Part shown: in pieces, positions 10,171 to 63,454 of the stretch
How positions within the stretch are numbered: the stretch's first letter is position 1
How the letters are laid out: each line of letters starts with the position of its first letter
NCBI GenBank assembly: GCA_030390025.1
Contig: CM059437.1
Coordinates: 53,258,001-53,322,000, forward strand
Length of the DNA stretch: 64,000 bases
Direction: 5' to 3'
Source: Squalus acanthias
Lineage: Eukaryota
Program-made: the position numbers and the translations under genes
The notes under the pieces: model-generated
Databases searched by the model: none
What the model saw: only the letters and a program-made list of their open reading frames with translations
What the model was told of the DNA's origin: nothing

Positions 10171-11353
10171 ATGGGGGCTCTAGCTGCAGACGCCCTCGAG
10201 CTACAGCATGACAGGGAGCTGGAGCAGAGGCAGAAAAGATGAGGACAAGCTGCTCGCAGAGGGAGGAGGAGGAGGGGGAGAATGGCTCTCAGCAGGAGGC
10301 CTTGCCCACCTAGGGTCTTCCGAGAGCACTTCTCCTACCTGCACTTAAGCCAGGAGCAGTGTATTCTAAGGCTCCACTTAATCAAGGAGGTGGTCACAGA
10401 AATCTACCACCTCTTGGAACCAGACCTGCAGCCTCAGAGTAGGGTGACGATGGCGCTTCCAGTGGCCCTCAAGGTGACCATGGGCCGAAATTTCTTCACC
10501 ACCGGATCCTTCCAGTCTGAAGCAGGCAACATAGCTAACATCTCCCAGTCTGCAATCCATCGCTGCATCCAGGAGGTCACAGAGGCTCTGTACTCCAGGA
10601 GAAGGGACTTCATTGACTTCTCTCTGAACAGAGAGAAGCAGGAGGAGCGCGCATGTGGCTTTTCCAGGATTTTGGGGATCCCCATTGTGCAGGGCACCAT
10701 CGACTTTGTGGGCGCGGCATGTCAAGCATGAGATGTACCGCTAATGCAAGGGCTACCACTCACTTAATGTGAAGTTGGTGTGCGACCACGCCCAGCACAT
10801 CATGATGGTGAATGCCCAGTATCCTGGCAGCAGTCATGATGCCTTCATCCTGCGCCGGTCCGGTATGCCAGCAATCATCCAGCCACCACGTTAAACCCAA
10901 GGGTGGCTGCTCGGAGGCAAGGGCTATCTGATCTTTATCTGGCCGATGACTCACCTCTAAAACCCCACCACTTGTGGCCAGCAGTCATATAATAACAGCC
11001 CTGATGCCACAAGGGGCCTCATCGAGCAGACCATCGGGGTTCTGAATCAACGGTTCCACTGCCTTGGCAGGTCGGGAGGAGTCCTCCAATACACGCAGGA
11101 GCGGATGTCCCAGTTCATGGTGGTCTGCTGCATCCTCCACAACTAGGCCATCATGAGGGCGCAGCCCTTGCCACCACGGGTTCCATGACCACCTCAGGAG
11201 GAGGAAGAGGAGGAGGGAAAGGAGGAGGAAGAAGAGGAAGAGGAGGTGGAAAAGGAGGTAGAAGAGGAGGAGGATGAAGGAAGGAAGCAGGAAGCAAATC
11301 CTCATTCTGGACGGGCTGTCCGTGAGCGTCTCATCAGACTCTGGTTCCAATGA
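10171..11353 (+). pseudogene. Harbinger DDE transposase pseudogene
   Basis: Motifs ALPVALKVT..FFTTGSFQ, ISQSAIHRCIQEVTEAL, VQGTID, KGYHSLNV, YPGSSHDAFIL, GWLLGGKGY, IEQTIGVLNQRF, VCCILHN and an acidic tail. Several stops and frameshifts. Confidence 0.9.
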
Positions 11354-12132
11354 ATGAAACCCCAGATCCCCGTTACTCAACACTTCACCACATTACCATC
11401 CCTCTGTCATGGAACATCACAGTGTCCTCTTGGGCACAAAGCTGAAATGAAAGCCACCACAAAAAAACATTCCAAACATAATTTATAAATGATTCCGTCC
11501 AATACGACATAACAAAGTCAACTAATCAACCTTGTGCATTCCCTTAGTGTCTGTCTTTCATGTTCCTTTGCATAGTCTAGTGCTCCTAAGCAGTGCTACC
11601 CCAGGGGCTGCAGCATGTCTGGTGGAAGACTGCTGACTTTCCATGGGGGACACTGCAGCTGGCCTTGCAGAACAACCTCAAGTAGCTCTGGGCCTAGAAA
11701 GCCCGGCTGAAGACTGCACCACCTCGACATGAGCGGCAGCAGTCCAGGCTGGTTGGCTGACAGGCAGCAGCAAAGCCACTGGCGGAGTGGCAGTGGTGGG
11801 AGTACGAATGCTATGAGAGGCCAGCAGATTCTTGCTCCACAGAGACACTGCCACTCCCCCGGTACAGCACCTCAGCATTCCTAGCCCTATCAAAGTCGTC
11901 ATCTGAGTCCTGTGCAGCAGAACTCATGTACGAACTCACCCTGGCACCTGAGGTACCTTGACCCCTGGACTGGCTGCAGCCCACTGGTGCCCAGTGACTC
12001 ACCGCATGAACATTCCACCTCTATACTACCCTATCAAGTTTGCGCAGTGCCGTTTTTTGAGCTGGTGCCTGGGAGTGTCAAATTGAGTGATGGTGCCTCT
12101 TCTTCTCCATTCTCCATGTCTCTCCTCCTCTA

Positions 12133-17149: not shown

Positions 17150-20100
17150 GCGTAACAAGATAGATGAGTTGACAGCACAAATAGAAATAAATGGGTATGA
17201 TCTGATACCCATAACAGGGACGTGGTTGCAAGGTGACCAAGGCTGGGAACTGAATATTCAGGATACTTGCCATTTCGTAAGGATAGGCAGAAAGGAAAAG
17301 GGCGTGGTGTCGCTCTGTTAATAAGGGATGAGATCAATGCAGTAATGAGAAATGATATTGGCCTAGAAGATCAAGACATAGAATCAGTTTGGGTGGAGAT
17401 AAGAAATAATATGGGTAAAAAGTCACTGGTGGGTGTGGTCTACAGGCCCCCAAAAAGTAGCCACACTGTAGCACAGAGAATAAATCAAGAAATAATAGAG
17501 GCTTGTAAGAAAGGTACGGCTATAATCATGGGAGATTTTAATCTTCATATTGATTGGACAAAGCAAATTGGCAAAGGTAGACTTGAAGAAGAGTTCTTAG
17601 AGTGTATTCAGGATGGTTTCTTGGATCAATATGTTGTGGAACCAACCAGGGAGAAGACTATTTTCGATCTGGTAATGTGTAACGAGGCTGGATTAATTAA
17701 GATGTGGAGATGCCAGTGTTGGACTGGGGTGGACAAATGTGAGAAGTCGCACAACACCAAGTTATAGTCCAACAGCTTTATTTGAAATCACAATCTTTCG
17801 GAGCACTGCTCCTTCGTCAGGTGACGAAGGAGCAGCGCTCCGAAAGCTTGTGATTTCAAATAAAGCTGTTGGACTATAACCTGGTGTTGTGCGACTTCTC
17901 GGATTAATTAGTGATCTGGAAGTGAAGGATCCTCTTGGGAAGAGTGATCATAGCATGGTAGAATTTCAAATTCAGTTTAAGGGTGAGAAAGCCAGGTCTC
18001 AAACTAGTGTCCTGAACTTAAACAAAGGTAATTACAAAGGTATGAAGGCAGACTTCGTTAAAGTACATTGAGAAAATATATTACAGGGTAAGACTGTAGA
18101 AAAGCAGTGGCAAACATTTAAGGAGATATTTCATAACTCTCAGCAAAGATATATTCCAGTGAGAAAGAAAGACTCTAAGAGAAGGAAGAACCATCCGTGG
18201 CTAACTAAGGAAGTGAAGGATGGTATCAAATTGAAAACAAAAGCATATAATGTTGCAAAGAATAGTGAAAGGCCAGAGGATTGGGAATTTTTTTTAAACC
18301 AGCAAAGAACGACTAAAAAAATTATTAAGAGAGAAGATAGCTTATGAGAGTAAGCTAGCAAGAAATATAAAAACAGACAGTAAGAGCTTCTACAGGTATA
18401 TAAAAAGGAAGAGAGTAGCTAAAGTAAAAGTTGGTACCCTAGAGGATGAGTCTGGGGAATTAATAATGGGAAACAGGGAAATGGCGGAGAATTTGAACAA
18501 ATATTTTGTATTGGTCTTCATGGTAGAAGACACTAAAAGCATCCCAATAATGAATAATCAAGGGGCTATTCGGGTGGGGGGGGGACTTAAAACAATCACT
18601 ATCACTAGAGAGAAAGTACTAGGCAAACTAATGGAACTAAAGGTGGACAAGTCCCCTGGACCCGATGGCCTGCAGCCTAGAGTCTGAAAAGAGGTGTCTG
18701 CAGAGATAGTGGATGCATTGGTTGTAATCTACCGACAGTCTCGGGATTCTGGAGAGGTCCCTGCGGACTGTAAAACCGCAAATGTAACGCCCCTATTTAA
18801 GAAAGGAGGGAGACAGAAAGCAGGCAACTATCGACCAGTTAGCCTAACATCTGTCATTGGGGAAATGCTGGAGTCCATCATTAAGGAAGTGATAGCAGGA
18901 CATTTAGAAAATTATAATATAGTCAAGCAGAGTCAGCATGGTTTTATGAAAGGGAAATCATGTTTGACAAATTTGCTGGAATTCTTTGAGGATGTAATGA
19001 GCAGGGTGGATAAAAGGGAACCAGTAGATGTTGTGTATTTGGATTTCCAGATGGCATTCGATAAGGTGCCACATAAAAGGTTACTACACAAGATAAGAGC
19101 TCACGGAGTTGAGGGTATTATATTAGCATGGATAGAGGATTGGCTAACTAACAGAAAACAGAGAGTCGGGGTAAATGGGTCATTTTCAGGTTGGCAAACT
19201 GTAACTAGTGGGGTACTGCAGGGATCAGTGCTGGTGCCTCAACTATTTACAATCTATATTAATGACTTGGATGAAGGGACTGAGTGTAATGCAGCCAAAT
19301 TTGCTGATGATACAAAGATAGGTGGGAAAGCAAATTGTGTGGAGGACAGAAAGAATCTCCAAAGGGATATAGATAGGCTAAGTGAGTGGGCAAATATCTG
19401 GCAGATGGAGTTTAATGTGGGAAAAATGCGAGGTTATCCACTTTGGTAGGAAAAATAAAAAAGTAAATTATTATTTAAATGGGGAGAGATTACAAAATGC
19501 TGAGGTAGAGAGGGATCTGGGGGATCTTGTACATGAATCACAAAACGTTAGCATGCAGGTACAGCAAGTAATTAGGAAGGCAAATGGAATGTTGGCCTTT
19601 ATTGCAAAGGGAATGGAGTATAAAAGTAGGGAAGTCCTGTTACAACCGTGCAGGGCGTTGTTGAGACCACACCTGGAGTACTGTGTACAGTTTTGGTCTC
19701 CTTATTTAAGGAAGGATATACTTGCATTGGAGGCAGGTCAGAGAAGGTTCACGAGGTTGATTCCGGAGATGAAGGGGTTGTCTTGTGAGGAAAGGTTGAG
19801 CAGGTTGGGCCTATACTTATTGGAGTTTAGAAGAATGAGAGGGGATCTTATTGAAACATATAAGATTCTGAAGGGGCTTGACAGGGTAGATGCAGAGAGG
19901 ATGTTTCCCCTCGTGGGGGAATCTAGAACTAGGGGGCATAATTTCAGAATAAGGGGAAACTCTTTTAAATCGGAAATGAGGAGGAATTTCTTCTCTCAGA
20001 GGGTCCTGAATCTTTGGAATTCTCTTCCCCAGAGAGCTGTGGAGGCTGGGCCATTGAATATATTTAAGGTGGAGATGGACAGATTTTTGAACGATAACTG

Positions 20101-20230
20101 AGTCAAGGGTTATTGGGAGCAGGCTGGGAAGTGGAGTTGAGGCCAAGATCAGATCAGCCATGATCTTATTGAATGGCGGAGCAGGCTCGAGGGGCCAAAT
20201 GACCTACTCCTGCTCCTACGTCCTACGTCC
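17150..20230 (+). mobile_element. CR1 LINE, near-complete ORF2 (APE endonuclease plus RT), disrupted
   Basis: VGVVYRPP, IIMGDFN, SDH, YRPVSLTSV, QHGFMKGKSCLTNL, YLDFQ.AFDKV, KFADD, RPHLEYCVQFWSP. Microsatellite tail (TCCTACG/TCTTATG). Stops and frameshifts present. Confidence 0.95.
17700..17900. mobile_element. Palindromic Penelope-like short insert with hammerhead motif, inserted in the CR1
   Basis: About 80-bp inverted arms centred at ~17820. 10-bp TSD GGATTAATTA (17690-17699, 17901-17910). Minus strand CTGACGA-AGGAGCAGTGCTCC-GAAA. Confidence 0.85.
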
Positions 20231-21790
20231 TACGTCTTATGTTCTTATAAGATTTAGATTAGCAATGGAGAGGAGCAAGGAACAATCTAGAGTGGAACTT
20301 CTAAACTGGAATAGGGCTAACTTCAATGGGATGCGAAAGGATCTAGCCAGGGTAAAATGGAACCAAAGACAGACAGGAAATACTGTAACAGAACAATGGG
20401 TGATCTTTAAGGAGGAGATGTTCCAAGTACAGGCTAGGTACATTCCAACAAGAGGGAAGGGTAAGGGAACCAAAGCAAGGGCTCCTTGGATGACGAGGGA
20501 GATAGAGAAGATGATGAAACAATAAAAGATGGTGTATGATGCATGTCAGGTGAATTCTTCAAGGGAGAACCAGACCAAATACAATAAGTTGAGAGGGGAA
20601 GTGAAGATGAAAATAAGATTGGCAAAGAGAGAATATGAGAGTAGAATGGCGGTTAACATAAAAGGGAACCCAAAAATCTTCTACCGGCATGTAAACAGTA
20701 AACGGGTAGTAAGAGACGGGGTGGGGCCTATTAGCGACAAAGAAGGTGTTATATGCTTAGAGGCACAGGGCAAGGCTAGAATACTCAATGAGTACTTTGT
20801 ATCGGTGTTTACTAAGGAGGTGGATGCTGACAAAATAGCGGTAGCAGTGGAAAAGGTAGAAGCAATGGAAGGGGTGAAAATTTGCCAATGGCACCAAACT
20901 TGGGGGAGTGGCAAACAGTGAGGATGATACCAATCGACTGCAACGGGACATAGAAACGCTAGCAGAATGGGTAGACAAGTGGCAGATGGAATTTAATACA
21001 GAGAAGTGTGAGGTGATGCATTTTGGCAGAAGGAACAGGGAGAGGCAATATACACCTAATGGCACCGTTTTAAAGTGTGTGCAGGGACAGAGGGACCTGA
21101 GAGTTAATATGCATAGGCCCCTGTGGCAGGACATATTGAGAGAGTGGTTAGCAAAGCATATGGGATCTTGGGTTTCATAAATAGAGGAATTGAGCACAAA
21201 AGTAGAGGAGTTATGCTGAATCTTTATAAAGCGCTGGTTAGGCCACAACTGGAGTATTGCATCCAGTTCTGGTCACCACATTTTAGGAAGGATGTGAAGG
21301 CCCTTGAGAGGGTGCAGAGGAGATTTACCAGAATGGTTCCCGGGATGGGGGATCTTAGCTACAAGGACAGGTTGGAGAAGCTGGATTTGTTTTCATTAGA
21401 GCAAAGGAGGTTGAGGGGTGATTTGATAGAGGTGTACAAGATTATGATGGGTTTGGATAGGCTAGACGGGGAAAGGCTGTTGGCCACTAGTTGATGGTAC
21501 AAGGACTAGGGGACACAGATTTAAGGTTTTGGGCAAGAGATTCAGGGGGGATGTGAGGAGAAACTTTTTTATGCAGCGAGTGGTGAGAACCTGGAATTCG
21601 CTGCCGATGGAAGTGGTGGAAGCAGAGACACACTCAATGTTTTCAAGGGGCGACTGGATAGGCACTTGAGGAAATAAACTTGCAGGGCTACGGGGATAGA
21701 GCAGGGAAATGGGACTGACTGGATTGCTCTGCAAAGAACCGGCACGGACTCATTGGGCCGAATGGCCTCCTTCTGTGCCGTTATGACTCT
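20231..21790 (+). mobile_element. Second CR1 LINE, internally deleted
   Basis: LNWNRANF, ILNEYFVSVFT, then a jump to LQRDIETLAEW..WQMEFN and RPQLEYCIQFWSP, plus CR1 3' UTR. The central RT is missing near 20880. Confidence 0.9.
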
Positions 21791-23103: not shown

Positions 23104-23111
23104 ATTTGCAT
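23104..23111 (+). promoter_or_regulatory. Ig light-chain octamer ATTTGCAT
   Basis: Perfect octamer in light-chain orientation, 130 bp upstream of the leader ATG. Confidence 0.85.
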
Positions 23112-23149
23112 GGATGAGGAACACGCGGTAACGCCTCGTTCACACGGTT

Positions 23150-23156
23150 GATAAAA
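23150..23156 (+). promoter_or_regulatory. TATA-like element GATAAAA
   Basis: About 40 bp downstream of the octamer, at the expected position. Confidence 0.5.
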
Positions 23157-23233
23157 AGAGCTGAGGAAGCCAGGTCATCAATCCGTTTCACCTGGATACC
23201 ATCGACATTTCTGCTCTCATTTCATTCTTCACA

Positions 23234-23282
23234 ATGTCTGAGTGGCTCGCTGTTTTCACCGTGCTGATACTTTTTCTGTCAG
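23234..23282 (+). CDS. Ig light chain exon 1 (leader)
   Basis: MSEWLAVFTVLILFLS(G), hydrophobic signal peptide. Phase-1 donor G|GTAAAT followed by a 115-bp intron. Confidence 0.92.
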
Positions 23283-23397
23283 GTAAATATGTTGCCAACG
23301 TTACGTTCTTGGTTTAACTCGCTGTGAGTAACGCTTTATTGCACAGAATTAGTTAGTGACTGGAGTGTCCGAAGTTCACCCCTCTGTTCTTTCATAG

Positions 23398-23754
23398 GCT
23401 CAAACGCGCAAATAACATTAAACCAAACACGTTCTCTTTCTACTGCCCCGGGAGGAAACGTCGAAATAAGTTGTACATTGAACGGAGTCACCTTGGGAAA
23501 CGCTCATGTATTCTGGTACCAGCAAAAATCTGGGAATGTTCCTCGGTATATTTTGTACCATAAATCCGACACTGTAGACAGAGGCTCCGGTATTACAGAT
23601 CGATTCTCCGGAAGGAGTAACCCGTCAACCAACGCTGGCTATTTAACCATCAGTCCGGTACAATCGGAGGATGAGGCGAACTACTACTGCTCTGTGTGGG
23701 TTGGTTCCATCAGTGCGCTTATCTTTGGGACCGGGACCATGCTGACTATTCCGA
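23398..23754 (+). CDS. Ig light chain germline-joined VJ exon
   Basis: TTTCATAG| (G)SNA-QITLNQTRSLSTAPGGNVEISCTLNGVTLGNAHVFWYQQKSGNVPRYILYHKSDTVDRGSGITDRFSGRSNPSTNAGYLTISPVQSEDEANYYCSVWVGSISALIFGTGTMLTIP, then A|GTAAGT. Conserved Cys, WYQQ, YYC and FGxG in one open frame, with no RSS. Confidence 0.97.
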
Positions 23755-24159
23755 GTAAGTAACTTTACTTCCTGCTGTTACAGGAAGACTTCTTATTCAT
23801 AATTTCCTCCTCAAATCAATAAGGTTCTAAACATCGAAAATCAGATGTCACATATTTATGAAGTATACAGCACATGTACAATGGTACTTAAGCATACAGT
23901 TAAAAGGCAGTACATACAACAGTCAATGTTAATACCTTTCTCTTACACCCTCCATGCGACATTCAAATACCTAACCCATTTTACTGATTAATCCCCCTCT
24001 TCCTTTCTCCATTGGATTCTAATGATTTAATTGTTGTTATTGGAGTCTAAAAGGACGCAGCATCAATGTTTGTATGGTTAATACATATTCTACCCCTACA
24101 GTCAGAGTTGCTCTTTTTAAGAGGGGCCAGGCAACTAAAGCCTGTGATGTAGTATACAC

Positions 24160-25945
24160 TAAAACGAAAGAACTTGCATTCATATAGCGACTTCCACAAC
24201 CTCAAAACGTTCTATAGGGCTTCATAGGCAATTCATTACTTTTGAAGTGTAGTCAGTGTTGTAATGTAAACGCGGCAGCCAAATTTGCCCACAGCAAGGT
24301 CCCGCAAACAGCATAGGAACAGGAGTGGGCTATTCAGCCCCTCGAGCCTACTCCGCCATTCAATGAGATCGTGGCTGATCCGCGACCTAACTTCATATAC
24401 CCGCCTTTGGCCCATTTCCCTTAATACCTTTGGTTAACAGCAAGCTATCAATCTCCGATTTAAAATGAACAATTGATCTAGCATCAATTGCCATTTGCGG
24501 AAGAGAGTTCCAAACTTCTACCACCCTTTGTGTGTAGAAGTGATTCCTAACTTCCCTCCTGAAAGGTCTGGCTCTAATTTTTAGACTATGCCCCCTAGTC
24601 CTCGAATCCCCAACCAGTGGAAATCGTTTCTCTCTATCTACCCTATCTGTTCCCCTTAATATCTTAAACTTCGATCAGATCACCCCTTAACCTTCTAAAT
24701 TCTAGGGAATACAACCCTAATTTGTATAATTTCTCCTCGTAAGTTAACCCTTGAAGTCCGGGTATCATTCTGGTAAACCTACGCTGCACTCCCTCTGAGG
24801 CCAATATATCCTTCCTAAGGTGTGGTGTCCAGAACTGCTCACAGTACTGCAGGTGTGGTCTAACCAGGGTTTTGTATAGCTGCAGCATAACCTCTACCCC
24901 GTTGTATTTAAGTCCTCTAGATATAAAGGCCAGCATCCTATTAGCCTTGTCGATTATTTTCTGCACCTGTTCATGACATTTTAATGATCTTTGTACCTGG
25001 ACCCCCAAGTCTCTTTGGACCCCCACTGTTTTTAGCCTTTCAACATTTAGAAAGTACCCTATTCTATCCTTTTTAGATCCAAAGTGGATGAACTCACATT
25101 TGCCTACATTGAAATCCATTTGCCACAGTTTTGCCCATTCACTTAATCTGTCGATATCCCTTTGTAATTTTATGCTTCCATCTACACTGCCTACAATGCC
25201 ACCTACTTTTGTGTAATCGGCAAATTTGGATATATAACTTTCTATGCCATCATCTAAGTCGCTAATAAATACTATGAATAGTTGAGGGCCCAACACAGAT
25301 CCCTGCTGGACACCACTAGTCACATCCTGCCAATTTGAGTGCCTACCCATTATCCCTACTCTCTCTCTCTCCTGCCGCTCAGCAAATTTCCTAACCAGGT
25401 CAATAATTTGCCCTCAAATCCGTGGGCTTCTACCTTAGTTAACAGTTTCTTATGTAGGACCTGATCAAATGTCTTCTGGAAATCCATATAAGTAAGCATC
25501 CATAGACATACCCCTGTCCACTACTTTAGGCACCTCTTCAAAAAATTCAATCAGGTTTGTCAGACATGACCTACCTTTCACAAATCCATGCTGGCTCTCT
25601 CTGATCAACTGAAAATTTTCGAGGTGTTCAATCACCCTATCCTTAATTATAGACTCTAGTAATTTCCCGAATACAGATGTTAGGCTAACTGGTCTACAAT
25701 TCCCTGGTTTCCCTCTCTCGCCATTTTTAAATAGCGATTATGAGATAAATGACCAGATCATCTCTTTTTGGTCCCATGTGAGAGTGCAATCCCATCCAAA
25801 AGACTCTTCCCCCGACAGCATTGCACTCTCTCAGTAGTGCACTGAGTTGTTCGTCTAGATTATGCTTACATTTCTACAGTGCGGCTTGAACCCACAACTT
25901 TTCAGTTCAGAGGTGAGTGTGCGACCATTGAAACAAGTTGACACT
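24160..25945 (-). mobile_element. Deu-domain tRNA-derived SINE split by a CR1 insertion (J-C intron)
   Basis: 24160-24312 and ~25735-25945 match the SINE copies at 31520, 47555 and 54090. tRNA B-box-like TTGAACCC near 25887. Confidence 0.7.
24313..25735 (-). mobile_element. CR1 LINE 3' part
   Basis: ORF 24664-25350 with VTSGV.QGSVLGP, KFAD and RPHLQYCEQFW, plus CR1 tail. Confidence 0.93.
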
Positions 25946-25948
25946 ATC

Positions 25949-26087
25949 GGGTAGATCTTGACGTTGTGTGATAGCGTAAAACGGGTGACAGTGAGTCGGC
26001 AGCCCGTCTTGCATCTCTCATGATTTTTATTTTCGTTGAAGTCAATCGTGAGAGATGTAAAACTCACGCAAAGTCAAGATCTACCCC
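25949..26087. mobile_element. Small palindromic MITE
   Basis: TIRs GGGTAGATCTTGAC / GTCAAGATCTACCC(C). Confidence 0.75.
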
Positions 26088-26402
26088 GAGAGTCTTTCTG
26101 AGTTCCCTGCCTAAAACATGAATTAGTGAGGTCGACACAGGAATGTGTGGGGCAGAGACAGAAAGGAGCGTGAGGTAAGGTAATACAGTATTAAGAGGAT
26201 GGAAGACAGCTTGCATTAAGCGTTCCTGCTCCGGGACGTCAGTGGCTGAATTTGGTAATGGACTGCAAAATTACACGGCATTGTGGGAAGGACCGAATAC
26301 ATGTCAGAGAGTAAAAGATCTCTACAATGTTTCACCGATAGTTTGCTCATTTTTTTATTGCTTTGCCATCAGATCGTTTTGTCATTTTAATGAGCCATTT
26401 TA

Positions 26403-26620
26403 AGAACATAAGAAATAGGAGCAGGAGTCGGCCATCGGCCCCTGGAGCCTGTTCCGCCATTCAATAAGATCATGGCTGATCTTCGAACTCAACTCCACTT
26501 TCCAGGCTGATCCTCATATCCCTTGATTCCCTTAATATCCAAAAATCTATCGACCTGTGTCTAGAATATACTCACAGCCTCCACAGCCCTCTGGGATAGA
26601 GAATTCCAAAGATTCACTTT
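26403..26620 (-). mobile_element. CR1 3' tail fragment
   Basis: AAGAACATAAGAAATAGGAGCAGGAGT..., reverse of the CR1 3' UTR. Confidence 0.85.
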
Positions 26621-27203
26621 ATAGGAGCAAATCAAATACTATGTGAACAGAGCAGTGTGTGTGCTGGGACATTTATTTTTTCTTATAACACCGTTAGGAT
26701 TGTAAGTGAAACGTCGGAAGCGCAACAACTATCCCGGGCAACAAGGCTAGCGAAAGATGAGCGGCTTTCCGATTGCGTGTTCGCTGTCTTTGATAGCTTG
26801 ATGTGTGTGCCCTCTCTAGTTTTATAGAGACTAAATCGTAAAATGTAAACGTGCAACAAGACTGTAGTTGGACATTTGATGTAATTGGAGCGTTATTGTT
26901 CTGTAGATCTATCAGAATGCATCGAATATGTGACGACCCTGATCTAAATACCTCAGTCAATTCGAATTACTATTCGAAATAATTAGCGACATTAACTATT
27001 TTCTTTATAGAAATGACCATTTTCAAGGCACTAGGAAAAATTCCATAGGCTTTGTGTCGTATTGCAGGGGTTTCCGCCAACGTTACGTCGAACAAGCGGG
27101 GCAACCTCCGCGAAAATCACCCGCAACTGCTTTGTTCCAGTATTGCTGGAACCCCTGGTTTATTTATTTTACTTATCTACCTTTAAATTATTTCCCTTTA
27201 CAG

Positions 27204-27532
27204 CCAGAAAGTCGTCCAGCCCTTCGGTGTCGCTTCTCCCGCCAGCGTCCGATCAGATCTCTGCAGCAAATGAGGCGACCCTGGTGTGTTTGGTGAATAA
27301 CTTTTTTCCGGATTCGGTGGAAGTTTCGTGGAGCGTAGACGGCCAGATCACGGACACTGGTGTCCTGACAACTCGGGCCGTACGGGACACCGACCAGACG
27401 TACAGTGTGAACAGTTATCTGACCCTGTCCGCCACCGAGTGGAACTCGCACGAAGTGTACACCTGCGGGGTTACACATGAGTCTCTCGGGTCTCAACTCA
27501 AGCAAAGCATCAAGAGATCAGGCTGCGAGTGA
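27204..27532 (+). CDS. Ig light chain constant exon (lambda / type II-like)
   Basis: TTTACAG| phase-1 acceptor, in frame with VJ: (T)RKSSSPSVSLLPPASDQISAANEATLVCLVNNFFPDSVEVSW...YSVNSYLTLSATEWNSHEVYTCGVTHESLGSQLKQSIKRSGCE*. C1-set motifs and a penultimate Cys for the H-L disulfide. Confidence 0.97.
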
Positions 27533-27588
27533 AAGAGAAAACCCGCCCACTCGGTGCAAAGTCTGGCATCGAACAAGTGGCAGGGACA

Positions 27589-27594
27589 ATTAAA
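27589..27594 (+). terminator. Candidate polyadenylation signal ATTAAA for the IgL gene
   Basis: 57 bp after the stop, followed by GT/T-rich TCATGTTTGTTCTTTG. Confidence 0.55.
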
Positions 27595-35974: not shown

Positions 35975-38550
35975 GAAACATAGAAACATAGAAGATAGGA
36001 GCAGGAGTAGGCCATTCGGCCCCTTGAGCCTGCTCCACCATTCAATGCGATCATGGTTGATCATCCAAATTCAGTACCCTGTCCCTGCTTTCTCCCCATA
36101 TCCCTTGATCCCCTTAGCCTTAAGAAATATATCTAACTCCTTCTTGAATATATTTAATGAATTGGACTCAACTGTCTTCTGTGGTAGAGAATTCCACAGG
36201 TTCACCACTCTCTGGGTGAAGAAATTCCTCCTCATCTCAGTCCTAATAGGCTTACCCCTTATCTGTAGACTGTGACCCCTGGTTCTGGACTCCCCCGCCA
36301 TCGGGAACATCCTTCCTGCATGTAGTCTGTCTAGTCCTGTTAGAATTTTATAAGTTTCAATGAGATCCCCTCTCATTATTCTAAACTCTAGCGAATACAA
36401 GCCCAATCAACCCAATCTCTCTTCATATGTCATTCCTGCCATCCCAGGTATCAGTCTGGTGAATCTTTGCTGCACTCCCTCCATGGCAAGAACATCCTTC
36501 CTCAGATAAGGTGACCAAAACTGCACACAATACTCAAGGTGTGGTCTCACCAAGGCCCTGTACAACTGCAGCAAGACATCCTTGCTCCTGTACTTGAATC
36601 CTCTCGCTATGAAGGCCAACATACCATTTGCCTTCTTAACCGCCTGCTGCACCTGCATGCTTACCTTCAGCGACTGCTGCACAAGGACACCCAGGTCTCG
36701 TTGCACTTCCCCTTTTCCAAATCTATTGCCGTTCAGATAATAATCTGCCTTCCTGTTTTTGCCACCAAAGTGGATAACCTCGCATTTATCCACATTATAC
36801 TGCATCTGCCATGCATCTGCCCAATCACCCAACCTGTCCAAATCATACTGGAGTTTCTCTGCATCCTCCTCACAGCACACACGCCCACCCAGCTTTGTGT
36901 CGTCTGCAAACTTGGAGATATTGGCCCAGAAATTGGACTTCGATGGTTGCCGCGGGGGTAAGGATCCCCCGCGATATCGCACTCCGCGCCTACCTTTATG
37001 GTTTTGGCCCACACGAACTCCAGTTCCTGGGCCTCTCCCTGGTGCCGGTGCACAGTGTGTGCGTGTCCCAGAGGCGCAGTTAGTGCGATGCGACCTCTGG
37101 GATCACGTGGGCCAGTCAGAGCCAATGGCAGCACACCATCTTTCATTCATAGTTTTGACAGGAAGAGCTGTCAAAGCTATGAATACAACAAGCCCCCAAA
37201 AGAACAGCTAAACCTCAATTAAATTTAAAAAAAAGCCATCACATTAATAAAATAACTATAGTTAAATAAATTAACCACTTTAAACAAAAATTTAAATTTT
37301 TGAAAAAATTTAAATTCTTTTTAAAAGTTATAAAAATAAACTTACCTTTCTTTAAAGTCTCTAAAAAAGATAAACCTGTTGAAAAATGTTTTAAATAATA
37401 CTTAATTAATTACTTACCTTGTTAAAAGGGGGTCTTACGCCTGCTTTCTTTATGTGTAAAATCTTCAACAGTTACCTGCGCGTTCAAACCTGAAAAAAAA
37501 ACTAAGTGTGCTGCGTGCGCGCAACCTGTAGCGCGCACGCGGTTCACTTAGGAACCGCCCCCTTTGCCATACACGAAGTGCCGGTTTCCCACGCATGCGC
37601 AGTGCATGCAGGAATCCAGCACTTCGGGACCTAATACGCGAGAGTACACAGTGCGTACTCTCCCGCATTAGGTCTAATTTTCGGGTCATTACATCTAGTT
37701 CCCTCGTCTAGATCATTAATATATATTGTGAATAACTGGGGTCCTAGCACCGATCCCTGCGGTACCCCACTAGTCACTGCCTGCCACTCGGAAAAAGACC
37801 CATTTATTCCAACTCTTTGCTTCCTGTCTGCCAACCAGTTTTCTATCTATCCAAGTGAGTACCTTACCCCCAATCCCATGTGCTTTAACGTTGCACGTTA
37901 ATCTCTTATGCGGGACCTTATCGAAAGCCTTCTGAAAGTCCAAATACACCACATCCACTGGTTCTCCCTTATCTATTCTACCAGTTACATCCTCAAAAAA
38001 TTCCAGTAGATTAGTCAAGCATGATTTACCTTTTGTAAATCCATGTTGACTTTGTCCAATCCTGTCATTGTTTTTCAAGTGCTCTGCTATTACATCTTTT
38101 ATAATGGACTCTAGCATTTTCCCCACTACCGATGTCAGGCTTACCGGTCTATAATTCCCCGTTTTCTCTCTACCACCTTTTTTAAATAGTGGGGTTACAT
38201 TAGCTACCCTCCAATCCATGGGAACTGTTCCAGAGTCTATAGAATTTTGGAAGATGACCAGCAATGCATCTACTATTTCTAGAGCCACTTCCTTAAGTAC
38301 CCTAGGAGGTAGATTATCAGGCCCTGGGGATATATCAGCCTTCAATCCCGTCAATTTCCCTAACACTATTCCCCTACAAATACTGATTTCATTCAGTTCC
38401 TCCCTCTCATTAGACCCTATGTTCCCTGACATGTCTGGGAGGTTATTTGTGTCCTCCTTTGTGAAGACAGAACCAAAGTATGTATTTAATTGTTCTGCCA
38501 TTTCTTTGTTCCCCATTATAAATTCCCCTGATTCTGACTGCAAGGGACCT
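35975..38550 (-). mobile_element. CR1 LINE 3' half interrupted by a MITE
   Basis: ORFs 37770-38660, 36407-37012 and 36071-36406 carry RT motifs. The frame is broken at 36923-37687. Confidence 0.95.
36923..37687. mobile_element. ~765-bp MITE, same family as 1015-1776
   Basis: TIRs GGCCCAGAAATTGGAC / GTCTAATTTTCGGGTC. Exact 3-bp TSD ATT (36920-36922, 37688-37690), and removal restores the CR1 sequence. Confidence 0.9.
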
Positions 38551-40039
38551 ACGCTTGACTTCACCTGTGCCACCAAACTGACTAGGCTACAACCCTCACA
38601 GAGGAGGGTTTCCAGACAGCTATCCCCTGCTGCCCTCAAATGACTGAGCCATCTTAACATGATAGGTGTGAATATTTACTGGGATATTTTTTAATGAACT
38701 TCCATAGTCTGAAGCAATGCAGATATGTCTGAATTCTAATATACATTTCCCACAATATGCATTACAGAATAGTATATAATATAATAGGAAAAAAGCTTAA
38801 CAATACAGAAGTCAGTATTAATATCTTTGTATTGTGAGAATGTATTTTGTGTGAAAGAAGCTAACACATGGTATAGATTATATTTCAGTATTCCGAAGGG
38901 GAATGCTAAGTAAGCAGGAGGTGTCAGGTTAATGCAATGCAAGATGTATCAAAAGGGTCTGAGTGAGAATTATAGATAGTTTGGTGCTGAAATTAATCCA
39001 GAATCTAGCTGTTAAAGTGTGATAATTATAACCATGCAAAATTATCTCATCTTCTACTGATAAGAAATGAAATTACATTTATATTCCAGTGAGTATGGAC
39101 TATATGTGATGCAACATTGCCATCTACTAGTAAAGTAGCATATGACACAAAGATCATAATTTCAGAATTGATAGGTTTAGAGCAAGTCATCCAACATTGT
39201 CCATCTGGGTGAACAAATACACTCACTTTCAGCAATTCTTTGATATTCTGTGCTGAGAACTTGGCTGGATTTGTTAAGAGTTCACAAAGCCCCAGGGATA
39301 TCCTACTGTAAGTGTGTAGACATATACATTGCTTGTACGTTCTGTCAATATTAATAAAACCGACAAGTTGATTTATCTCTGTGCCTGAACCTATATAATT
39401 TGGATTAATCTACTCAGTTGATCTGCCATGCATGTTGTAGTTTTAACCTCTTGTGTGCTGATTTTAACCTAATATAATTTTAATGTGAATTATACCCAAA
39501 AAAATCCTCTGGTCAAATAGAAGTCCCAAAAGTGCACAACAGAAAACTGCTCACAATTCAAGAAAATATTGATACCAAATTGGCAACTTTATTTAGAAAG
39601 ACAGAAATAGCTAATGTAGAAAATAGAAATGTTACCTGTATAACTATGTATATGTCGTAAAGCAGATTACTGGATGAAAAATGGAGACTGGAAGGAGAAG
39701 AGCAAACAAGAGTTGGGAGCAAACAGATGGTTGACCAGGAGAGTTTTTAGGAGACTTCTGAAAATAGGGAGGGAGGTGGCAAAGTAGAGTGATTTAGGGA
39801 GGGAGCCTCAGAGGGCAGAGGAATGGTCAGTGGAAAGAACAACTGCAGCTGTTACTACAGAGGGATCAGGGAATGAGGACAAAATGCAGATTTGGAGCAG
39901 AGGCTGCATACAGGGACATACAGCTGAATGAGATCACTAGGGTAGGATGTATTTATGAATTGGATCAATACACTTCAGTGCTGTGTACAGGGCAAAAGCC
40001 AGACTGCAGTATGTGGAAAACAGGACTCATCCCTAAATA

Positions 40040-50929: not shown

Positions 50930-51310
50930 TCCTGCAGCATTCAATCCCTCACTCACAGTAACACTACAGACTGCAGCACCCAATCCCTCACTCACAGTAA
51001 CACTGCAGACTGCTGTATTCAATCCCTCACTCACAGTAACACTGCAGACTGCTGTATTCAATCCCTCACTCACAGTAATACTACAGACTGCAGCACTCAA
51101 TCTCTCACTCACAGTAACACTGCAGCACTCAATCCCTCACTCACAGTAACACTACAGACTGCAGCACTCAATCTCTCACTCACAGTAACACTGCAGCACT
51201 CAATCCCTCACTCACAGTAACACTACAGACTGCAGCACTCAATCTCTCACTCACAGTAACACTGCAGTACTCCATCCCTCACTCTCAGTAACACTGCAGC
51301 ACTCAATCTC
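50930..51310. repeat. Minisatellite, 39/30-bp units (TGCAGCACTCAATCCCTCACTCACAGTAACAC[TACAGAC])
   Basis: Direct tandem repetition, about 10 units. Confidence 0.9.
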
Positions 51311-52282
51311 CCACTCCTAATGGTGCAGTAGAGCTGGTCGGCCAGTCCTTCAGATAGCATTAAGCCCTTCACCTGCCTCTTCCCTTTTAGGCAGCCTGTA
51401 CACAGCAAATACTGCGCAAATGTGGATAAATGGAACAAATTAATTAATGGTCCATTTTTAGGGAGAAGTGATTTCCCGTGTTCCCTTGAAAGAGGATGAA
51501 CAACAGTTTTGATATGGTTAAAAACACCTGTACCAACTAATGGCGGCTGTGCCAGTGTACAGCAGCGCCTTATCCAGCAAAGAACGACGTTAATAAACCC
51601 AGGCTTCCTGGTGAAAAGGCTAAGACAGGAATCTTTCCTTTTTTCCTCTTCCCTCCCCCCCCACTCAAAATGTTCTCTTCTACCAAAGACACCAACACAT
51701 GCAGGAGCACGGTTCCATGCACATCAGCAGAACTCCAAGAGGCAATTCTTCATATGCGAGCCTGCACAGGGAGTTTCAACCATGGGGATGTCGCAGTCTT
51801 GATCCCAATGTCCACACATCTTTCCAGCAGGCTTAATGGTAACCGTCAGGTGCAGGACCCCTGACTGACTTTTCCCCTTCCTAGCCAAAGGTAATGGAGG
51901 TGACTTGTAACCCGCAGCACGGCCCTGCTGAGATCAGCTTACTCCGTACATGTATGGGAGTTTCCTAGTCTGTACATTCAGTACTACACTAGAGTGCAGC
52001 TGCTCACTGAACAAGACAAGATAAAACCCATGATAGTATACAGCAGCATTCTTGAAAATATGCAGATCAAATAGAATTGTACTGCTTGCAAGGTACTGGT
52101 CACATTCTGATTACGTCTGGGGATAAACTGCAGCCATACTCCAGTGTTTTAATGCTGTTATCGCGCACTGAAGATTTGTGCCTGAAGTGTTAATTTTTCT
52201 TTCTTTAAGCTGCTGACTACATTTTTAGAAGTTTATTTTTATCCTGAGTTTCTGGGGGTTTTTTTTTATTGAAAGTGCTTAC

Positions 52283-58213: not shown

Positions 58214-59906
58214 CAGGTGGCCAATTATTTGGGCTGGAGAGCCAAATAACAAGTTTTGGTGCGCTGTTGAGGGCCGCACACCAATGTTCCCGTTAAGCTG
58301 CACGGTCACACAGCGGTCTGGAGATCCCACGCAGGCCAGTTAGCAGCTTTTAAATTAATAGCTGTGTAATTAGTACAGTAATGAGCACAATTAAATTGCT
58401 CACCAATTGCCGAACAAGCAGAGGGTGTTACGTTAGTGAATAAATCTGTTTATTTATACTAACTGATGAATAGCAAATTAATTATCAGTGTTAAATAAAT
58501 AAATGAGATTATTTAAAATGCTAATTAGTAAACAAAAATCAGTTTTGCATTAATTAGTTAGTTGGTAGTTAATAACTGGTAAACAGGTATCATCCATCAG
58601 TCACCCCATCACTGGAAGTTTGAGATGGGGGGATGGATAATGGGGAGGGGGGGGTGGGATGGATGATGGGGAGGGGGGAGGTTGGAGGTTGGATGATGGG
58701 GAGGGGGGAGGTGGGGGGAGATGGGGAATGGGGAGAGCTGGGCTGGGGGGGGGGGGGGAGAGCTGGGCTGGGGGGGGGGGGGGGGGGGGGGGAGAGCTGG
58801 GCTGGGGGGGGGGGGGGGGGGGGAGAGCTGGGCTGGGGGGGGGGAGAGCTGGGCTGGGGGGGGAGAGCTGGGGCTGGGGGGGGGAGAGCTGGGCTGGGGG
58901 GGGAGAGCTGGGCTGGGGGGGGGGGGAGAGCTGGGCTGGGGGGGGGGAGAGCTGGGCTGGGGGGGGGGGGGGGGGAGAGCTGGGCTGGGGGGGGGAAGAG
59001 CTGGGCTGGGGGGGGAAGAGCTGGGCTGGGGGGGGAAGAGCTGGGCTGGGGGGGGAAGAGCTGGGCTGGGGGGGGGAAGAGCTGGGCTGGGGGGGGGAAG
59101 AGCTGGGCTGGGGGGGGAAGAGCTGGGCTGGGGGGGGAAGAGCTGGGCTGGGGGGGGAAGAGCTGGGCTGGGGGGGGGAAGAGCTGGGCTGGGGGGGGAA
59201 GAGCTGGGCTGGGGGGGGAAGAGCTGGGCTGGGGGGGGAAGAGCTGGGCTGGGGGGGGAGAGCTGGGCTGGGGGGGGGAGAGCTGGGCTGGGGGGGGGAG
59301 AGCTGGGCTGGGGGGGGAGAGCTGGGCTGGGGGGGGAGAGCTGGGCTGGGGGGGAGAGCTGGGCTGGGGGGGAGAGCTGGGCTGGGGGGGGGAGAGCTGG
59401 GCTGGGGGGGGGGAGAGCTGGGCTGGGGGGGGAGAGCTGGGCTGGGGGGGGAGAGCTGGGCTGGGGGGGGAGAGCTGGGCTGGGGGGGAGGGCTGGGCTG
59501 GGGGGGAGGGCTGGGCTGGGGGGGGAGGGCTGGGGAGGGATGGGGTGAGCTGGGCTGGGGGGGGGGATGGGGTGAGCTGGGCTGGGGGGGGATGGGGTGA
59601 GCTGGGCTGGGGGGGGATGGGGTGAGCTGGGCTGGGGGGGGATGGGGTGAGCTGGGCTGGGGGGGGATGGGGTGAGCTGGGCTGGGGGGGGATGGGGTGA
59701 GCTGGGCTGGGGGGGGATGGGGTGAGCTGGGCTGGGCAGTGAGGGGGGGGGGGGTGAGTTCGGGGGGAGGCGGTCCTTCGAAGGGGGGAAATGAGGGGGT
59801 AGGAGTGAGGGCCTGGGCTGGGGGGCGAGCTGTGCCTGCGCTCTCCCTGCTGCTGCACTCACCACCAGATCATGGGCCACTAGTGGGGAATGGGGGGAGC
59901 TGGGCT

Positions 59907-59941
<35 letters not shown>

Positions 59942-61481
59942 GAGGCGGGCTGGGGGGGGGGGGAGAGGCGGGCTGGGGGGGGGGGGGGGGAGAGCTGGGC
60001 TGGGGGGGGGGGGGGGGGGGGAGAGCTGGGCTGGGGGGGGGGGGGGGGAGAGCTGGGCTGGGGGGGGGGGAGAGCTGGGCTGGGGGGGGAAGAGCTGGGC
60101 TGGGGGGGAGAGCTGGGCTGGGGGGGAGAGCTGGGCTGGGGGGAGAGCTGGGCTGGGGTGAGCTGGGCTGGGCAGTGAGGGGGGGGGGGGTGAGTTCGGG
60201 GGGAGGCGGTCCTTCGAAGGGGGGAAATGAGGGGGTAGGAGTGAGGGCCTGGGCTGGGGGGCGAGCTGTGCCTGCGCTCTCCCTGCTGCTGCACTCACCA
60301 CCAGATCATGGGCCACGCTGCCGTCAGTAAAAGGCCCTCCCCCTCCCCCAGGGGGACGGGGCCCAATGTATCCCACAGAAGACTGAAAACTTTCTGCAAT
60401 ATGGGTACAAACTTGCGCATTCTCTAAAATGGCACACTGAGCAACAGTGATTAATATCACACCGACCAGTCAAAATGGCACTCATGTTGGTTGGTCACTG
60501 AAACAAATGATGCTGAAACTATAGCTGATGTGTTCCCAATGAAGTAAAAAGTCCCAAACTCCCAGAAAGTCTTCTGCAAAGTCACTTTCATACAGTGTGA
60601 CACGGACTGCAGCTTTACTACATTAATGTTCTGGGATTGATAGTTGCACTGGGAGCATCGGAGTTCTACGGTGGACTGTGCATGGCTACAAATCAACATC
60701 AGTGCTGCCATGAGCACGGTGTCCAGCCATGGTTACACATACGTGCATGGCTCTGCTGCCAGAAATCAAAGTTGAAATGTTGAGAGAGTGGGCACGGGCT
60801 CCCAAACTCTCAAAGCATTAAAAAAAAAGCTTTCTCCTTCAGTTTATAATATGCTCAGGTAAACGGAATCCCTCAGCACATTTTAAACTCGGCCGTACAT
60901 CACATTGGAGTTTCAATCCATACACTCCAGAAGCAGAGGGAACCCGACTTTGGAGTTACATCACCACTTTTGCAGTAACTCTCAGTTAGAGCGGTGCAAA
61001 AGTGAAGCATTAAGGCACCCCACTGAGAAACAGCTTACACGTTTTGACTAAAATTAGAGTGCAGTGGGATTGATGATCCCGGCCGCCAGTCTCCATATCT
61101 TGGCCTCCCAACACGAATAGGGAGTGCTGCCCCATATAACATTTAGGGTTGTGGAACAATTCAGGAGCTACAAATTCCATTGCAGAAAATTTCTCTTTTC
61201 TGGACACACTGGTTTGACGCAAAAGTTTAAGGCTCAGACTTATCAGAAGAAGCAAATCTCAGTTACTGTGCTGGAATAATTCACCTTAATCCTGATCGGA
61301 AGATCTTTTGCAGCTATCGAAAGGGCCCTGCTGCCTCGCAGACAATAACCCGGCTCCTGACGTTATGTGGGGCGGGGTCAGGCACAGCAGACGTTTGGCC
61401 TCGAAGCCAGGCCTTGGCAGGCCAGATTGAATTCATTGGCGGGCTGGATACAGCTCGCGGGCCGTATTTTGCCCGCCACTG
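58214..61481. mobile_element. hAT (Charlie/Buster-type) DNA transposon in a HIRA intron
   Basis: Termini CAGGTGGCCAA / TTGCCCGCCACTG, 8-bp TSD GTCTAGAT (58206-58213) / GTCTAAAT (61482-61489), subterminal GGGCCG motifs. Weak dimerisation-domain-like remnant in ORF 60457-60717 (-). Confidence 0.8.
58625..60316 (+). repeat. G-rich minisatellite of (GAGCTGGGCT-Gn) units with an internal ~160-bp duplication
   Basis: About 55 AGCT-containing units by manual count. Sub-arrays GAAGAGCTGGGCT-Gn and GATGGGGTGAGCTGGGCT-Gn. ~59720-59880 is repeated at ~60155-60316. Confidence 0.95.
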
Positions 61482-62434: not shown

Positions 62435-62506
62435 CTGTGAACAAAACGTAAGCGTATATTAAAGCTGAGCCACAGATTGCATCATATTATACAGCTTCAA
62501 AGGCCA

Positions 62507-62991
62507 GGGACTACACCACATCCCTTCGCACAGCACCCAGGGTTAGGGACTACACCACATCCCTTCGCACAGCACCCAGGGTTCGGGACTACACCACATC
62601 CCTTCGCACAGCACCCAGGGTTAGGGACTACACCACATCCCTTCGCACAGCACCCAGGGTTAGGGACTACACCACATCCCTTCGCACAGCACCCAGGGTT
62701 AGGGACTACACCACATCCCTTCGCACAGCACCCAGGGTTAGGGACTACACCACATCCCTTCGCACAGCACCCAGGGTTAGGGACTACACCACATCCCTTC
62801 GCACAGCACCCAGGGTTAGGGACTACACCACATCCCTTCGCACAGCACCCAGGGTTAGGGACTACACCACATCCCTTCGCACAGCACCCAGGGTTAGGGA
62901 CTACACCACATCCCTTCGCACAGCACCCAGGGTTAGGGACTACACCACATCCCTTCGCACAGCACCCAGGGTTAGGGACTACACCACATCC
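62507..62991. repeat. 39-bp minisatellite GGGACTACACCACATCCCTTCGCACAGCACCCAGGGTTA, 12 units plus a partial one
   Basis: Near-identical units, with degenerate units continuing to ~63150. Confidence 0.95.
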
Positions 62992-63454
62992 TGTAATACA
63001 ATACCCTTGGTCAGGGATGAGAGTGCATTCTGTAATATAGCACCCTACAACAGGGATTACAGTGCATTCTGTCATACAGCACCATGTGTCAAGGATTACA
63101 CAGCGTCGAATAATATAGCACCCTGACAGTGATGGTATCACAGATTCTAAATAGTATCTGGTATATTTAGCCAGTGCACCATATAGTGTACAAGGGTTCA
63201 AATCCACATACTACTGTCTTATACCAGCTTATGCACTGCAGCATATAGCAAGTGATTACAATATAGCTTCAGTTTTACAGCTCGTGCTCAATTGGAAGTG
63301 ATACCATTTCAGCTAAGAAAGGGATCACAGTAAGAACACTAAAACTAAATCAAACCAAATAGATGTTTTTGTTTTGTGGAAAAGACTGTGGCAGTTAAAA
63401 GTTGTAGGTGAAACAATTTCTAATTGGCAAAACACTAGCTACTGAGCATTATCA

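Follow-up and report, generated by a model that had tools for sequence, protein, structure and literature searches.

A germline-joined lambda light chain gene of Squalus acanthias, probably encoding a conventional chain of an old shark-and-ray sub-lineage

What kind of light chain is encoded by a shark gene whose V and J are joined in the germline, and to which lineage does it belong? Reviews treat shark lambda as one uniform, entirely joined family, and all type II genes have been reported as joined (PMC5192425). A stretch of 64,000 nucleotides from Squalus acanthias, here called the window, contains one such gene (the window gene), and a preliminary description had proposed that it represents a divergent isotype or a surrogate-light-chain analogue. 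In this study, the structure, chromosomal setting and relationships of the window gene were analysed. The gene is intact and spliced, and it probably belongs to an old lambda sub-lineage of sharks and rays and encodes a conventional chain with a fixed CDR3 that pairs with IgM/IgW heavy chains. As judged from sequence, a fixed light chain of ordinary function is the most likely reading, rather than a stand-in for immature B cells.

Gene structure and chromosomal setting

The octamer, leader, fused VJ and C exons were read from the sequence as an intact gene with a stop-free spliced frame of 244 amino acids (Table 1). Both introns were spliced out in contigs of all four runs examined (nine listed), with junctions at 23280>23396 (leader intron, the cut read two bases to the right) and 23754>27204; the splicing was read from contigs, and the run kinds (RNA) are guesses, none being on record. 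The spliced contigs start at approximately 23187-23191. The single open frame of leader, fused VJ and C in the preliminary description was thus confirmed by sequence and contigs, and the CDR3 and C motifs that it quoted were found in the translation and the C exon. A processed pseudogene is ruled out because the gene keeps its introns. The J-C intron carries reverse-transcriptase-like repeat fragments. An identical VJ junction was recovered in runs of two studies, and the V contigs were unbroken, but of a depth too shallow to exclude hypermutation; a 23578 A>G change (Asp>Gly) in CDR2 was seen in both runs of organism B. The translation contains the VL interface residues Y36, Q38, P44, Y87 and F98 (Kabat numbering) as well as the C-terminal Cys, and the heavy-chain pairing features of the predicted protein are normal.

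Table 1. Features of the window gene (positions within the window)
Feature	Position	Strand	Evidence
Octamer ATTTGCAT, Ig light-chain promoter	23104..23111	+	sequence
TATA-like box GATAAA	23150..23155	+	sequence
Leader exon, ATG to splice donor	23234..23282	+	sequence and contigs
Leader intron, 115 nt, GT..AG	23283..23397	+	present in genome, absent from transcripts
Germline-joined VJ exon	23398..23754	+	sequence, genome search
Long CDR2, 7 residues (our own delimitation)	23559..23579	+	alignment and contigs
Fixed 11-residue CDR3, SVWVGSISALI	23691..23723	+	alignment with orthologues
J-C intron, 3449 nt, GT..AG	23755..27203	+	sequence and contigs
C exon with penultimate Cys	27204..27532	+	sequence, genome comparison
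Poly(A) signal variant ATTAAA	27589..27594	+	sequence

A scan of the 64-kb window found no RSS near the gene, in agreement with the preliminary description; four weak RSS-like matches (2-3 mismatches) at 11418, 16221, 62268 and 63390 lie apart from the Ig exons. The statement that no second cluster is present held within the window, where tblastn found no further Ig exon, but not beyond it: a sister V was located at G000:C13:53,247,017-53,247,349, in head-to-head orientation to the window gene and outside the left edge of the window by approximately 11 kb. The window gene is the end member of an array of eight clusters, of which the other seven have the same C type and promoter, the similarity being in the stretch behind the octamer. 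More than 35 lambda clusters are located on the same chromosome (C13), and the array is placed between type II arrays. SMARCB1 (43.1 Mb), BCR (43.9 Mb), MIF family members (47.8 and 48.7 Mb), TOP3B (51.6 Mb, 1.7 Mb from the window gene) and IFT81 (74.6 Mb, 21 Mb away) are on this chromosome, and type I clusters are on other contigs (C3553, C24 and C185). Tetrapod IGL is anchored on MIF and TOP3B (PMC9614664), and true lambda is linked to IFT81 (PMC5985310). The region is syntenic with the tetrapod lambda locus.

A related lambda-type cluster at C13:54.81-54.82 Mb, 1.5 Mb from the window gene, is split as V-23/12-J, and four somatic N-containing (N/P) joints were found in its transcripts. The window gene itself retains no RSS; the grouping of the related cluster's C has support of 92/86 and 87/83 in the two C trees. 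No description of a split shark lambda cluster was found in the literature searched, and earlier shark light-chain or repertoire papers may already cover it. Such a cluster with somatic joints would overturn the view that every cartilaginous-fish lambda gene is joined, and would serve as a living model of the state preceding germline joining.

Separate histories of the V and C domains

The VJ exon is single-copy in the genome (G000), and the next V has a DNA identity of only 68-70%. Thirteen orthologues of the window V were found across 12 shark and ray species, one per species in 11 of the 12 and two in Hemitrygon. All 13 have a CDR3 of 11 residues, versus 5-13 in classic type II. In sequence, the orthologues differ most in CDR2 and CDR3, where mean identity is 0.48 and 0.50, compared with 0.64-0.75 in the frameworks. 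No orthologue from carpet sharks, catsharks, skates or chimaeras was among the matches listed; these searches were word-limited, and loss is not implied.

In the V tree, 12 rows form a clade (100/97), whose sister group is the V of the neighbours (98/94, and 97/71 in a smaller tree). The window V falls outside the classic short-CDR2 type II V clade (99/96) and does not group with the type II V of sandbar and horn sharks; its Trp-to-RF distance is 29, and that of classic type II V is 25-27 in all but one of the 27 parsed. The V backbone is unresolved, all five AU tests being non-significant, and a sister relation to type II V was not rejected (p 0.30). The C domain forms its own clade (95/98, and 97/93 in a second C tree), and a type II C clade that includes chimaeras (98/94) excludes it. 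Nesting of the window C inside elasmobranch type II C was rejected (p-AU 0.0006), and in this tree the window C lineage predates the divergence of shark and chimaera type II C. Separate phylogenies of the two domains support the proposal that the gene, its VJ fixed in the germline, represents an old and distinct sub-lineage of lambda. No V or C tree contained a bony-fish or tetrapod C, lambda-2, named VpreB or human IGLV5 sequence, and the all-lambda C clade (87/76 and 92/81) is to be read without bony-vertebrate C. The assignment to lambda derives mainly from synteny, identity and linkage to type II. AU tests alone leave a grouping with type I (sigma-2, NS5) unrejected (p 0.26, and 0.27 in the C tree, where kappa was likewise unrejected at p 0.17); identity to type I is 29-36% in V and 50-52% in C, and its clusters lie on different contigs.

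The window C is 89-94% identical in amino acids to that of the seven sister clusters and 44-60% to type II C. Compared with five intact neighbours, dS is 1.4-1.9 and dN 0.25-0.30 in V, versus a dS of 0.04-0.07 in C, and DNA homology to neighbours at 97.5% is limited to the C exon and approximately 30 nt of flank. The C is near-identical to that of the neighbours, yet the V is old relative to them. Moreover, the C domains of the two V lineages pair within species in Heterodontus (100/98) and Pristiophorus. The shark-ray split dates to about 250-300 My ago, and since before it a single joined VJ seems to have persisted as a near-single-copy gene, its C exon being overwritten by neighbours.

An ancestral V-23/12-J lambda cluster, similar to the relative 1.5 Mb away, may have been joined once in the germline before the shark-ray split. 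Purifying selection would then have kept the V, and gene conversion would have repeatedly homogenised the C exon with its neighbours. B cells would activate the gene from the octamer promoter without need of RAG, and diversification, if any, would proceed by hypermutation only, as described for type II. The V genes of this one locus fall into at least five lineages and the C domains into two or three deep ones, and sharks and rays probably possess a second, very old lambda sub-isotype comprising a still-rearranging founder cluster and genes frozen by germline joining. No description of the window-gene sub-lineage was found in the literature searched, although earlier shark light-chain or repertoire papers may already cover it; the elephant-shark supplement gave only non-Ig matches, in two of the three places shown.

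Candidate roles and identities

That one copy, with an unvarying CDR3 length, has been retained over such a time is a hint of some specialised role, which the conventional-chain reading leaves unexplained. One candidate is an innate-like chain, conventional in build and with a pre-set binding site, which would serve chiefly in early life or as the partner of a single germline-joined heavy chain. The single V copy, the one orthologue per species in nearly all species and the invariant CDR3 length speak for it, and the nurse-shark pair of IgM1gj and joined sigma-2 provides a precedent (PMC4279169, PMC2193156). However, the low conservation of CDR2 and CDR3 argues against one conserved ligand, and the promoter resembles that of the neighbours; we consider this role possible but doubtful.

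A functional surrogate would be an always-productive invariant chain against which early B cells test their new heavy chains, a role that VpreB/lambda5 has in mammals and authentic lambda chains have in pigs. The window gene is independent of RAG and close to TOP3B, the neighbour of VPREB1, and its V has a long CDR2, with best single-domain PDB matches among long-CDR2 human and macaque lambda chains, one of them named IGLV5-37 (7czt_L). Authentic light chains are argued to be able to replace the surrogate (PMC8873125). However, all joined lambda genes are equally RAG-independent, so the window gene is not singled out. A long CDR2 is likewise found in type I, in a ratfish chain and in further lambda lineages of sharks, and at least four lineages of shark or ratfish besides the present one share it; it is thus not a VpreB mark. 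Identity of the V to tetrapod IGLV5-type V (45-54%) is no higher than to other shark lambda lineages (47-64%); the reptile and frog genes compared are unnamed, and their IGLV5-type label was assigned by us from a motif. Grouping with IGLV5-type V was neither shown nor rejected (p-AU 0.44), and the tree contains no supported joining; the suggested VpreB analogue was not supported. No VpreB chain was among the 60 PDB matches shown, and a frog IGLV5-type control likewise returned none among those shown; with both lists crowded by multi-domain constructs, this ranking says nothing either way. ESM Atlas returned generic V-set clusters, all at 0.96, with no discrimination among them.

VpreB is recognised as a V-only protein that lacks J and ends in a charged tail, and lambda5 as a separate J-C protein with a unique N-terminal region and a GPRC motif (PMC9614664). 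The translation is a single covalent chain in which V continues into J and is then spliced to C, and it has no VpreB C-terminal tail, lambda5 N-terminal region or GPRC motif; the origin of surrogate genes has been placed in tetrapods or eutherians (PMC9614664). An ordinary one-chain L-V-J-C gene among seven sister clusters on the true-lambda chromosome gives no support to the proposed surrogate analogue. That the window gene, as the single long-conserved member of the sub-isotype, tests heavy chains as a functional surrogate that predates VpreB/lambda5 is improbable, the surrogate role being the weak step. The window gene offers a concrete object of study for two questions, what purpose germline-joined antibodies serve and by what means heavy chains are checked in fish that lack VpreB/lambda5.

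It is still less probable that the window gene is the missing cartilaginous-fish lambda-2, predicted possibly to survive in unstudied species (PMC5985310), or another separate isotype. The age of the C lineage and its low identity to type II C are in favour. However, short CDR1 (5-7) and CDR2 (2-3) characterise lambda-2 V, whose locus is away from IFT81-linked true lambda (PMC5985310), whereas the window V has a CDR1 of 8 and a CDR2 of 7 residues and is flanked by type II arrays on the chromosome of IFT81 and TOP3B. With sister clusters sharing its C and promoter on a chromosome with true-lambda markers, the divergent isotype was not supported. A recent duplicate of the multicopy type II family or an assembly-captured somatic join, which the abundance of clusters on one chromosome and the joined state of type II genes might suggest, has a negligible probability and in its strict form is refuted by the junction shared by two studies, orthologues of equal junction length in sharks and rays, near-saturated V synonymous sites versus neighbours and the C tree.

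Comparison with known light chain systems

Sterlet IgL3, a true lambda with a single V-23/12-J-C cluster and a homogeneous junction (PMC5985310), is likewise a low-copy invariant lambda chain on an IFT81-linked chromosome; compared by description, it is split and rearranges somatically, whereas the shark gene is joined. Mammalian VpreB1/2 and lambda5/IGLL1 are also invariant, RAG-independent, lambda-derived and near TOP3B, but they are two proteins with unique tails, whereas the shark gene encodes one tailless V-J-C chain with a closed CDR3. Tetrapod IGLV5-type V share the long CDR2 and similar FR2/FR3 with the window V, but rearrange somatically in a translocon. Nurse-shark sigma-2 (NS5), the partner of neonatal IgM1gj, is germline-joined and invariant with a long CDR2 and provides a model for an early-life role, but is a different isotype. 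Classic type II/NS3 (e.g. sandbar shark lambda P0078) shares the germline-joined L-VJ-C minicluster, the chromosome region and related C motifs. The window lineage is only 37-48% identical to it in V, has a CDR2 region that is longer by 2-4 residues, falls into V and C clades of its own, and combines a single-copy V with a CDR3 length fixed across species.

Structure and transcription of the window gene

The germline-joined lambda light chain gene is a real feature. Its introns are of the GT..AG type and its reading frame covers 244 amino acids, bearing out the preliminary description of a leader, a fused VJ with an 11-residue CDR3 and a C exon in one frame. The reported absence of RSS was likewise confirmed near the gene by a sequence scan of the window. 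No Ig exons besides its own were found within the 64 kb; the claim that no second cluster exists holds inside the window but not beyond it, where seven more clusters were located, the nearest V lying ~11 kb to the left.

Transcripts were examined in four of nine listed runs, drawn from two studies, with the kind of each run being the tool's guess. A contig with the leader and J–C introns exactly skipped was detected in all four runs, which indicates that these contigs represent RNA. The V contigs showed no differences from the genome in two runs, and the other two had one common difference at 23578 (Asp to Gly, CDR2). Spliced contigs extended only 36 nt past the joint on the C side; longer C contigs differed from the window C at 3–8 sites and probably derive from sister clusters.

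Many reverse-transcriptase/endonuclease fragments, which we take to be LINE-like, were observed in the window (17237–21494, 24393–25737, 36071–38675 and others), one of them on the minus strand of the J–C intron. A transposase fragment near 10243–10731 is presumably Harbinger/PIF-like. Simple repeats occupied 58620–60160, 50932–51316 and 62506–63100, namely a G-rich, strongly GC-skewed minisatellite of 20–27 bp and two tandem arrays of 39 bp.

Coordinates of the window gene (window positions) and of related lambda features (G000, the assembly; C13, contig CM059437.1; L-handles, genomic stretches)
Feature	Position	Strand	Remark
Octamer	23104	+	window gene
Leader exon	23234–23282	+	window gene
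VJ exon	23398–23754	+	window gene
C exon	27204–27532	+	window gene
ATTAAA	27589	+	window gene
Sister clusters	L002–L005, L008, L010, L019 (G000:C13:53.01–53.25 Mb)	opposite to window gene	window's C type
Second long-CDR2 lambda V lineage	L006, L007, L009, L011–L013 (G000:C13:52.90–53.01 Mb)		type II-like C exons
Split lambda-type cluster (V-23RSS, 12RSS-J)	L075:550–1481 and L064:383–703 (G000:C13:54,814,550–54,820,705)		end of type II array

Lambda locus and orthologues

The window corresponds to G000:C13:53,258,001–53,322,000. V and C exon searches recovered the seven sister clusters, whose C domains were 89–94% identical to that of the window gene, against 58–63% for their V; the V was open in five and broken in two (a stop; a frameshift), and several had a CDR3 of 6 residues. 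Past them lay six long-CDR2 V genes and five type II-like C exons, of a V lineage occurring also in carpet sharks, rays and skates. The classic short-CDR2 type II array comprised 26 C exons at 54.07–54.80 Mb, with J fused in all 15 V genes read. The window V itself proved single-copy in the genome, the next-best DNA match across V being 68–70%. Further genes on the contig are SMARCB1, BCR, members of the MIF family, IFT81 and TOP3B, the last confirmed by comparison with PDB (E 3e-26, against 2e-9 for TOP3A). According to the accessible text of the sources, MIF and TOP3B flank tetrapod IGL (PMC9614664) and IFT81 is linked to true lambda in sterlet and gar (PMC5985310). The region is the lambda locus.

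Other Ig loci were observed elsewhere in the assembly. Dozens of type I/sigma-2 clusters were present on contigs C3553, C24 and C185 (L030, L068, L069, L071–L073), and the V genes read there had germline-fused J, as reported for skates. About five sigma clusters were found at C19:4.60–4.70 Mb (L066); a V-12 RSS was present in the single cluster that was read. Kappa-type C exons were few, with only four found (C75, L065). A divergent joined VJ and C gene at C284:278,780–281,109 (L067:2781–5113) was 33–35% (V) and 38% (C) identical to the window gene; its V grouped loosely with type I, and its C formed a long branch outside every light-chain group examined.

Among 191 candidates, 9 of 11 matches were orthologues of the window gene (V identity 58–79%), and a cluster look-up added four. 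The resulting 13 proteins represent 12 shark and ray species, and each bears the automatic name 'lambda-1 light chain-like'. CDR3 length was fixed at 11 residues in 13/13 orthologues, against 5–13 in classic type II (26 of 27 chains parsed). Variability was greatest in CDR2 and CDR3, where pairwise identity averaged 0.48 and 0.50, compared with 0.64–0.75 for frameworks and 0.74 for C. The simplest reading would be one germline join predating the shark–ray split.

Phylogeny and a split lambda-type cluster

For the V tree, 89 of 113 rows were kept after removal of 24 redundant or badly cut rows. The window V lineage formed a clade (100/97), with the neighbours' V as its sister (98/94; 97/71 in a 57-row tree). 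Classic type II, other long-CDR2 shark lambda, type I, kappa, sigma and tetrapod IGLV5-type sequences formed separate clades on an unresolved backbone; unnamed reptile and frog V genes were presumed to be IGLV5-type from a sequence motif. AU tests rejected none of five alternative groupings of the window V (p-AU 0.26–0.46), whether its partner was type II, type I, the IGLV5-type sequences, shark lambda as a whole or the remaining long-CDR2 shark lambda. In C trees of cartilaginous fish only (69 and 36 rows), the window and neighbour C lineages formed a single clade (95/98 and 97/93), which fell outside a type II clade that takes in chimaera chains (98/94). Nesting of the window C within elasmobranch type II C was rejected (p-AU 0.0006), and grouping with type I (p-AU 0.27) or kappa (p-AU 0.17) was not; the window C lineage is therefore old. 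The separate phylogenies did not place both domains within ordinary type II, and the window gene is probably a member of an old lambda sub-lineage.

The C of the split cluster shared 63% identity with the window C, and the two grouped together in both C trees (92/86 and 87/83, not starred). The cluster has a leader and a V whose RSS consists of heptamer CACACGG and a poor nonamer separated by 23 nt. A perfect nonamer and, after a 12-nt spacer, a heptamer lead into the J, which lies ~260 nt past the V RSS; this order is the lambda-type 23/12 arrangement. Comparison with transcript contigs of four runs revealed four distinct V–J joints with non-templated letters in two runs of one study. Three joints were in frame, all in one run, and in our reading two of these finish with the two letters that P additions would leave where the J end is untrimmed. 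A run of the other study contained the unrearranged stretch spliced to C, and point variants occurred in contigs of one run. The assembled V carries a one-base frameshift, common to two runs and absent from the run with in-frame joints. Orthologue proteins were found in five other sharks. Somatic joints at a split cluster contradict review statements, in the accessible text, that cartilaginous-fish lambda genes are all joined (PMC5192425, PMC4279169, PMC12227049); no description of a split shark lambda cluster was found in the literature searched, key subscription papers lying outside reach.

Role of the window chain

V dS between the window gene and five intact neighbours was 1.4–1.9 (dN 0.25–0.30) and C dS was 0.04–0.07. 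Strong DNA similarity to the closest neighbour did not extend beyond the C exon, and the C domains of both V lineages paired by species in horn shark and sawshark (69-row C tree). We infer that an old V has been maintained under purifying selection and the C exon homogenised with neighbours by conversion. The gene most likely encodes an invariant light chain of the conventional kind, which would be expressed free of RAG and pair with heavy chains as other type II chains do, these being all germline-joined as far as the available text of the reviews states (PMC5192425, PMC4279169, PMC12227049). A putative early-life or fixed-partner role has precedent in the accessible parts of two sources (PMC2193156, PMC4279169).

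The preliminary description further regarded the long CDR2 as VpreB/IGLV5-like and the chain as a candidate surrogate-light-chain analogue. The long CDR2 is real, with a Trp-to-RF distance of 29 against 25–27 in classic type II, but it is not VpreB-specific: distances of 29–30 also occur in the neighbours, the second shark lambda lineage, a ratfish chain (P0102) and type I, and being common to these it is likely ancestral. V identity of the window lineage was 52–64% to neighbours, 47–61% to other long-CDR2 shark lambda, 45–54% to tetrapod IGLV5-type, 37–48% to classic type II and 29–36% to type I, and the top single-domain PDB matches were long-CDR2 lambda chains, one named IGLV5-37. The surrogate reading is unsupported. 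The window promoter is similar to those of the six sister clusters where the octamer was found. In principle the chain could take on a surrogate-like role, as argued for authentic light chains in pig (PMC8873125, accessible text), but nothing singles the window gene out for it. In the available part of PMC9614664, surrogate chains are defined by the C-terminal tail of VpreB and by an N-terminal lambda5 region containing GPRC; the translated window protein has neither. Compared with VpreB/lambda5, the window protein lacks the surrogate tails and has normal VL interface residues and a C-terminal Cys.
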